From IMG/VR virus record IMGVR_UViG_3300045988_079407: 32,423 bases of DNA. The stretch is one strand, 5' to 3'. The notes under the pieces are model-generated. The model was not told the DNA's origin. It worked only from the letters and a program-made list of their open reading frames with translations, and did no database searches. This document shows, one piece after another, positions 32,146-32,423 of the stretch. This stretch comes from a virus (Duplodnaviria; Heunggongvirae; Uroviricota; Caudoviricetes). Position numbers and translations under genes: made by a program. Position 1 is the first letter of the stretch. Each line of letters opens with the position of its first letter.

Positions 32146-32317
32146 TTTTCGTATTTTCAATGAAACAAAAGCAATTTTTTACTATCTTTCGCGTTTCATT
32201 GATTAACGACTAAAATTTGCGCTACAGGCTTGCAAGCCCCACCAAATCTAATCCCATCAGATCCCGAATAATCCAATGTCCTCCCGGTTTTTTTCGTACT
32301 TCAAGTGAATCAATACA
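32146..32317 (-). repeat. Mu left end (attL) with three transposase end-binding repeats
   Basis: On the window strand: ttttcgtacttcaagtgaatca (32291..32312), ctttcgcgtttcattgattaac (32186..32207, imperfect) and ttttcgtattttcaatgaaaca (32146..32167). These fit the reverse complement of the roughly 22-bp MuA end-site consensus; the terminus is ...CA at 32317. Confidence 0.8.
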
Positions 32318-32423
32318 TGCGATAACGAACGCTATCAACGCACGCTGGAAAACTTTGGTTATCTCATTCAGCAGGCGACCGTTTTTGGTCAGCATGTCCA
32401 TGTTGGCTGCGCCAGTGGCGATG
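32318..32423. other. Host flanking DNA at the prophage left junction
   Basis: Sequence beyond the Mu terminus is unrelated to Mu. Several reading frames are open across the 106 bp, so the interrupted host gene and its strand cannot be assigned. Confidence 0.6.

Follow-up and report, generated by a model that had tools for sequence, protein, structure and literature searches.

The window, that is, the whole stretch of 32,423 bp that was analysed, consists of the larger part of a Mu-like prophage followed by a short host flank, the two meeting near its 3' end. The Mu left-to-right direction corresponds to the minus strand of the window, and the prophage is about 98–99% identical to vB_YpM_5, D108 and Mu over most of its length. 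The features on which the description below relies are as follows.

1–32317, minus strand: part of a Mu-like (Muvirus) prophage of 37,514 bp, namely its left 32,317 bp, from the G-segment boundary to the left terminus
28983–30980, minus strand: MuA transposase, 665 aa, with the Pfam domains HTH_Tnp_Mu_1, HTH_Tnp_Mu_2, DDE_2 and Mu-transpos_C
31371–31979, plus strand: immunity repressor, 202 aa, with limits taken from the N1286 annotation; transcribed towards the left end, like Mu c
32146–32167, minus strand: L3, innermost MuA site, TGTTTCATTGAAAATACGAAAA; identical to Mu bp 151–172, 0 mismatches to the consensus, half-site present
32186–32207, minus strand: L2, weak internal MuA site, GTTAATCAATGAAACGCGAAAG; identical to Mu bp 111–132, half-site present
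32208–32290, minus strand: L1–L2 spacer of 83 bp, as in Mu save for a T to C change at Mu position 97
32291–32312, minus strand: L1, terminal MuA site, TGATTCACTTGAAGTACGAAAA; identical to Mu bp 6–27, 1 mismatch to the consensus, half-site present
32316–32317, minus strand: terminal CA, which reads 5'-TG on the top strand of Mu; homology stops here, at Mu bp 1
32318–32322, plus strand: left-end copy of the 5-bp target duplication TGCGA, ybdK nt 331–335; the same pentamer abuts the right end
32318–32423, plus strand: 3'-ward part of the disrupted ybdK, codons 111–146, frame +1, 100% identical to K-12

At its other extremity, the window opens in the tail-fibre gene S (1–556, minus strand), no more than about 25 bp from the boundary of the invertible G segment. 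Mu and D108 align from window position 21–23 onwards, vB_YpM_5 and SfMu already from position 1. Outside the window, a stretch of 5,197 bp contains the G segment, gin, com/mom and the right end; it corresponds to 14327–19524 of a second locus (L051) introduced below.

Left Terminus and MuA Binding Sites

The minus strand of 31980–32317 corresponds to positions 1–338 of Mu (NC_000929/AF083977) at 98.8% identity, and for every Mu record the alignment starts at Mu base 1, which is window position 32317. Within the first 235 bp, pairwise alignment leaves a single difference from Mu, at Mu position 97. Two Yersinia Mu-like phages and Escherichia phage PhiR68_1 match the left end at 99.1–99.4%; vB_YpM_5, vB_YpM_6 and D108 are not among the near-identity matches to the left 338 bp. 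The terminus itself reads ...CAATACA, the 5'-TGTATTG of Mu on the opposite strand, and its terminal CA is the 3' end that is nicked by MuA and joined to the target (PMC3145075).

Placement of the terminus is further aided by other insertions of related elements. Beyond ...CAATACA all 23 of the Mu-like lysogens that were read diverge at once, with 23 distinct 5-bp flanks, so that the end of the element is placed at 32317 by comparison as well. The element thus has a TG...CA terminus with a break in homology exactly at the CA, and the first-pass annotation of this DNA, made from its letters, had put the Mu end at the same base as do Mu bp 1 and the 23 lysogens. The terminal A at 32317 also equals the ybdK base that precedes TGCGA (alignments across the junction start at query position 100). 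This overlap of 1 nt is due to chance and does not shift the Mu end.

The 22-bp consensus for MuA sites, YGTTTCAYTNNAARYRCGAAAR, which reportedly goes back to Craigie et al. in 1984, was scanned over the 32.4-kb window allowing up to 3 mismatches. It returned two matches, both on the minus strand, where 0.11 would be expected by chance. The half-site AARYRCGAAAR occurs exactly three times in the 32.4 kb, at 32146, 32186 and 32291, always on the minus strand; its expected count is 0.37, and three matches were reached in 1 of 100 shuffles. The corresponding Mu sites L1, L2 and L3 occupy Mu positions 6–27, 111–132 and 151–172, coordinates that reportedly also go back to Craigie et al. in 1984. 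L1 is separated from L2 by 83 bp, and L2 from L3 by 18 bp; the sites, their spacing and their orientation are as in Mu, where the L1–L2 spacer is the region bent by the host HU protein. L1 and L3 were, in addition, paired as a direct repeat of 79% identity by a repeat finder.

L2 misses the 22-bp consensus even at 3 mismatches and carries the exact half-site AAACGCGAAAG. It is best regarded as a putative half-consensus site, as in Mu, on the grounds of that half-site and of its identity to the footprinted L2 of Mu. In a diverged left end (L061) the L2 half-site is retained, the other half of L2 being variable. Each Mu end is known to contain three MuA sites (PMC3145075), and three repeats of roughly 22 bp had been noticed within 172 bp of the terminus from the outset. 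This count is borne out, as the outer edge of L3 lies 172 bp from the end; all three repeats hold by half-site and by identity to Mu, with the qualification that L2 follows the consensus in one half only.

A run of A residues just inside L1 (32284–32294) is found as A6, A7 or A8 among near-identical left ends (loci L015–L020, L022–L024 and L059 were compared), and a change in its length alters the L1–L2 spacing by one base.

The Host Flank and ybdK

The 106 bp that follow the Mu end (32318–32423) are nt 331–436 of ybdK on its coding strand and are 100% identical to K-12 MG1655. They are matched in 5,405 of 5,426 complete E. coli genomes, always within a gene annotated as a YbdK-family carboxylate-amine ligase. 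ybdK is a non-essential gene, and its product is a ligase with weak gamma-glutamylcysteine ligase activity. That host and not further phage DNA follows directly after the Mu end therefore holds for 106 of 106 bases. The disruption of a host gene had been suspected from several frames open across the flank, the gene itself being left to a search, and that search names ybdK, with the break between codons 111 and 112. Of the six frames, three (+1, +2 and -2) are indeed open. The true ybdK frame is +1, which translates to YbdK residues 111–145 starting with Cys111, and the openness of +2 and -2 is due to chance.

Since the flank is the coding strand of ybdK, the gene runs in the plus direction of the window and the prophage lies antiparallel to it, from which it follows that the repressor gene points into the 3' fragment of ybdK. 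A simple scan found no terminator-like site on the plus strand between the repressor gene and the host flank. An inverted repeat at 32317–32336 and 32348–32367, 75% complementary, falls inside the ybdK coding sequence and was dismissed as a chance occurrence.

Split in this manner, ybdK would be inactivated, leaving a null allele. Its 5' part would yield YbdK residues 1–111 followed by a 24-residue tail encoded by the Mu right end. In the 3' part, an in-frame start codon (ATG, GTG or TTG) would come at nt 448 at the earliest.

Right End and Target Duplication

The gene gp44 (3188–4327, minus strand) had no exact copy in any of the 21 loci collected beforehand and was for this reason chosen as a rare query. 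Its exact sequence is present in 50 index blocks, and the look-up returned locus L051, the ENA scaffold VATT16-1_SAMN05827163_METAG-scaffold_117 (ERZ28647277), a gut-metagenome scaffold of 37,786 bp. L051 is 100% identical to window positions 1–14327. Window position 1 falls at scaffold coordinate 18097 + 14327 - 1 = 32423, which equals the length of the window, so that the initial 32,423 bases of the scaffold, reverse-complemented, give the window. To judge from 14.3 kb at 100% identity and two exact coincidences of coordinates, the window and L051 would be one molecule.

The Mu right end in L051, ...TTTTCGTGCGCCGCTTCA, ends at locus position 19524. The junction there reads ...GCGCCGCTTCA/tcgcatacctcc..., the slash marking the boundary, and its flank is the reverse complement of K-12 ybdK nt 170–335 with 0 mismatches (166 of 166 bases identical). 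In the orientation of the window the entire arrangement is ...caggaggtaTGCGA/TGAAGCGG...(37,514-bp prophage)...CAATACA/TGCGAtaacg.... The two host flanks are contiguous in ybdK and overlap by exactly 5 bp, TGCGA. With the right end lying 5,197 bp before window position 1, the prophage measures 32317 + 5197 = 37,514 bp, and the sum of both flanks and the prophage, 166 + 37,514 + 106 = 37,786, is the length of the scaffold.

A second copy of TGCGA had been predicted beside the right end, some 4–5 kb before the window. The copy was found on L051, nt 331–335 of ybdK being present at both junctions, and the right end does precede the window, at a distance slightly greater than had been anticipated. 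A missing duplication at the other end had been named in the first-pass annotation as an observation that would speak against the insertion; with TGCGA at both junctions, this was not the case.

The right end of L051 (18986–19524) differs from that of Mu in having variant R2 and R3 sites and one change in R1, and a 148-aa ORF without a Pfam match lies between mom and the right end. A right end of the same type occurs in the N1286 prophage and several other lysogens, while that of the SE11 prophage is Mu-type.

The scaffold comprises the prophage and only 106 and 166 bp of ybdK. The breaks close to both junctions suggest that the sample also holds E. coli with an empty ybdK, or several alleles of the gene; either would divide the assembly graph and cause a scaffold to stop at such points. 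Flanks of this length also invite the view that the scaffold represents packaged virion DNA with host tails, not an integrated prophage. In Mu heads the phage DNA has ca. 50–150 bp of host DNA attached to its left end and a longer piece, typically 0.5–3 kb, to its right end, and the left flank of 106 bp lies within this range, on a scaffold that holds phage DNA and two short host tails and nothing else. The right flank of 166 bp, however, falls short of the typical length, the flanks of virions from lytic growth come from many sites, which would prevent their assembly into a single clean consensus, and the label of the sample record is that of a bulk metagenome (METAG). A virion origin is consequently very improbable, and even in that case the junction would record an insertion into ybdK with a 5-bp duplication, leaving the reading as a Mu insertion unchanged. 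Still less credence can be given to an assembly artefact in which a Mu end and an unrelated piece of E. coli DNA were joined by the assembler, as might be suspected of a short-read metagenome scaffold that ends about 100–170 bp past each end, because the probability that a random join would produce two independent junctions in the same gene, with an exact 5-bp overlap and ends precisely at TG...CA, is negligible, and because related prophages in three assemblies of isolate genomes, two of which are complete, show the same architecture.

Transposase and Related Prophages

Overall, MuA of the window is 92% identical to MuA of Mu. From aa 66 onwards there are approximately 5 differences in about 600 residues, the end-binding I-beta and I-gamma domains and the catalytic domain included, and the near-identity of the end-binding domains matches the identity of L1–L3 to the Mu sites. 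A MuB gene call (AAA_22, Phage-MuB_C) was obtained on locus L021, which is 100% identical to window 28371–32317. A cognate DDE transposase with Mu end-binding domains and a MuB ATPase are therefore both present alongside the left end. The first approximately 65 residues of MuA (30786–30980, minus strand), which form the I-alpha domain that binds the enhancer, differ strongly from those of Mu. As the divergence is confined to this N-terminus, the boundary of the immunity module runs through the transposase gene.

The left end of Mu resembles that of the window in its terminus, in L1–L3, in their spacing, in its orientation to the repressor gene and in the 5-bp duplication. Mu differs from the present prophage in the N-terminal domain of the repressor, in the operators and in the first ca. 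65 aa of MuA, and it lacks the variant R2/R3 and the extra 148-aa ORF after mom. The element had first been called a Mu prophage, of which the Mu-type end stands; it is more accurately a Mu relative with another immunity region and a variant right end.

Closer counterparts are found among lysogens. The prophages of SE11 (NC_011415.1) and N1286 (NZ_CP178401.1) are of the same immunity type (1.4 kb at 98.8–99.3% identity) and share the left end of the window. Both are flanked by 5-bp duplications, ATCGG in SE11 and ATAAA in N1286, and they are inserted in an Rpn-family gene and an agaC-like PTS IIC gene, respectively, not in ybdK. The SE11 prophage is approximately 94% identical to the window over the alignable parts. 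The prophage of GCA_000457165.1 (KE699566.1; L021 and L049) is free of mismatches over the left 3.9 kb, has 4 of them in 14.3 kb of the tail region and shares the type of right end. Its duplication is likewise of 5 bp (GAGTG), these three being the related prophages of which both ends were readable, and it is situated elsewhere in the chromosome, bordered by ispB/rplU at its left end and by murA at its right end. Near-identical copies at different host sites, differing by at most 4 bases in 14.3 kb, imply that the lineage has probably been mobile recently. D108, vB_YpM_5 and vB_YpM_6, which are sequenced virions, are 98.5–98.9% identical over window 1–25000.

A further prophage (L006, 7800–14100; ENA ERZ28604099) has mom, com and gin inverted beside a truncated gp47 baseplate gene, with the remaining tail genes in opposite orientation. 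This rearrangement resembles an inversion of which one end falls at the G segment.

Distribution of the Insertion and Target Preference

The empty site was sought with a 206-bp query spanning it, and 5,407 of 5,426 complete E. coli genomes proved to contain this sequence without interruption, so that the target gene, whose state in other strains it had been proposed to check, is intact in nearly the whole collection. A query spanning the insertion junction found it in none of the same 5,426 genomes. The left junction and the predicted right junction, CAGGAGGTATGCGA/TGAAGCGGCG, had no matches among the GTDB species representatives and JGI metagenomes, nor had the exact left junction any in IMG/VR. 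The insertion is private to one E. coli population of a gut metagenome, and ybdK is no hot spot. Such a private insertion fits near-random, ongoing transposition of the phage lineage in natural E. coli.

The target preference of Mu, N-Y-(G/C)-R-N, is said to have been described by Mizuuchi and Mizuuchi in 1993 and by Haapa-Paananen et al. in 2002, the second of which is cited in PMC5357137, and it is a preference, not a strict requirement. The pentamers of the 23 lysogens fit it, with Y in 19, S in 21 and R in 21 of the 23. TGCGA conforms at positions 3 (C) and 4 (G), position 2 being G and not a pyrimidine. The agreement of its central C-G with the Mu preference, together with this single occurrence, is what could be cited for ybdK or its site as a preferred or selected Mu target in place of near-random transposition. 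Set against the absence of the junction from every collection searched, against a site left empty almost throughout E. coli and against 23 other lysogens located at 23 other sites, a preferred target is scarcely credible, and near-random insertion is retained.

Traces of the insertion were also sought at the protein level. The predicted fusions of YbdK(1–111) with a Mu-encoded tail, constructed for three right-end variants of which variant B2 is the one in L051, were not found by exact look-up. Of four possible C-terminal restart products of ybdK, the same kind of look-up returned only the 202-aa product starting at Met171, which is indexed in 62 blocks. It was rejected as a trace of the insertion, given that its contigs carry frameshifted ybdK alleles or end at contig edges and contain no Mu. 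In several Mu-free assemblies (L025–L034), ybdK is called as an N-terminal ORF of 84–178 aa plus the 202-aa Met171 C-terminal ORF. These split calls reflect either recurrent frameshifts or sequencing errors.

Transposition Into ybdK

Taken together, the region is almost certainly the attL of an apparently complete Mu-like prophage that was inserted into E. coli ybdK by MuA-catalysed transposition, a reading that draws on sequence comparison throughout and that no result contradicts. In the established pathway, MuA monomers bind L1–L3 and R1–R3, and the Mu ends are synapsed into a transpososome with the aid of HU and the enhancer. After nicking by MuA at the terminal CA, the 3'-OH ends attack two phosphates of the target at a distance of 5 bp, and repair of the two 5-nt gaps generates a 5-bp duplication (PMC3145075, PMC5357137). 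By the same route, the MuA sites at both ends of the present element would have been bound, and the ends synapsed and nicked at the terminal CA. Attack of the 3'-OH ends on ybdK at positions 5 bp apart, followed by gap repair, would then have given rise to the duplication of TGCGA. Upon induction, the copy in ybdK would presumably not be excised and would serve as a template for replicative transposition.

The left end is ordinary Mu attL architecture, already known, and there is nothing new at the junction. What is gained is the exact boundaries of a 37.5-kb Mu-like prophage and the identity of the gene that it disrupts, with little significance beyond correct annotation. The only mildly unusual item, the mosaic repressor, lies outside the junction.

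The Immunity Region

The N-terminal domain of the repressor belongs to Pfam HTH_3 (E 3e-7, aa 35–78, XRE-type), where Mu c has HTH_Tnp_Mu_1. Resemblance to Mu c is restricted to aa 105–202 (98 residues), at 53% identity, and the N-terminal half resembles repressors of Pseudomonas transposable phages. No full-length counterpart exists among 50,697 deposited phage genomes, and no similarity could be detected between the repressor and the N-terminus of the MuA encoded beside it. In the predicted protein an HTH_3 N-terminal domain is joined to a C-terminal half like that of Mu c, a mosaic build that marks the prophage as a putative heteroimmune relative of Mu.

In Mu, the repressor and the transposase compete for the same operator/enhancer DNA via homologous domains. 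Because the present repressor and the MuA N-terminus lack such similarity, the coupling of immunity to the enhancer may work differently here. It is possible, if rather unlikely, that the prophage belongs to a heteroimmune lineage in which the repressor swapped the Mu-type winged-helix DNA-binding domain for an XRE-type HTH_3 domain, MuA kept a diverged Mu-type I-alpha domain and this coupling differs from that of Mu.

The 1.4-kb immunity region is present in 2 of 5,426 complete E. coli genomes. In a large assembly collection the repressor is found in 428 index blocks and is common in E. coli assemblies, compared with 12,011 blocks for gp48, 800 for gene N and 165 for gp11, these look-ups having returned other lysogens.
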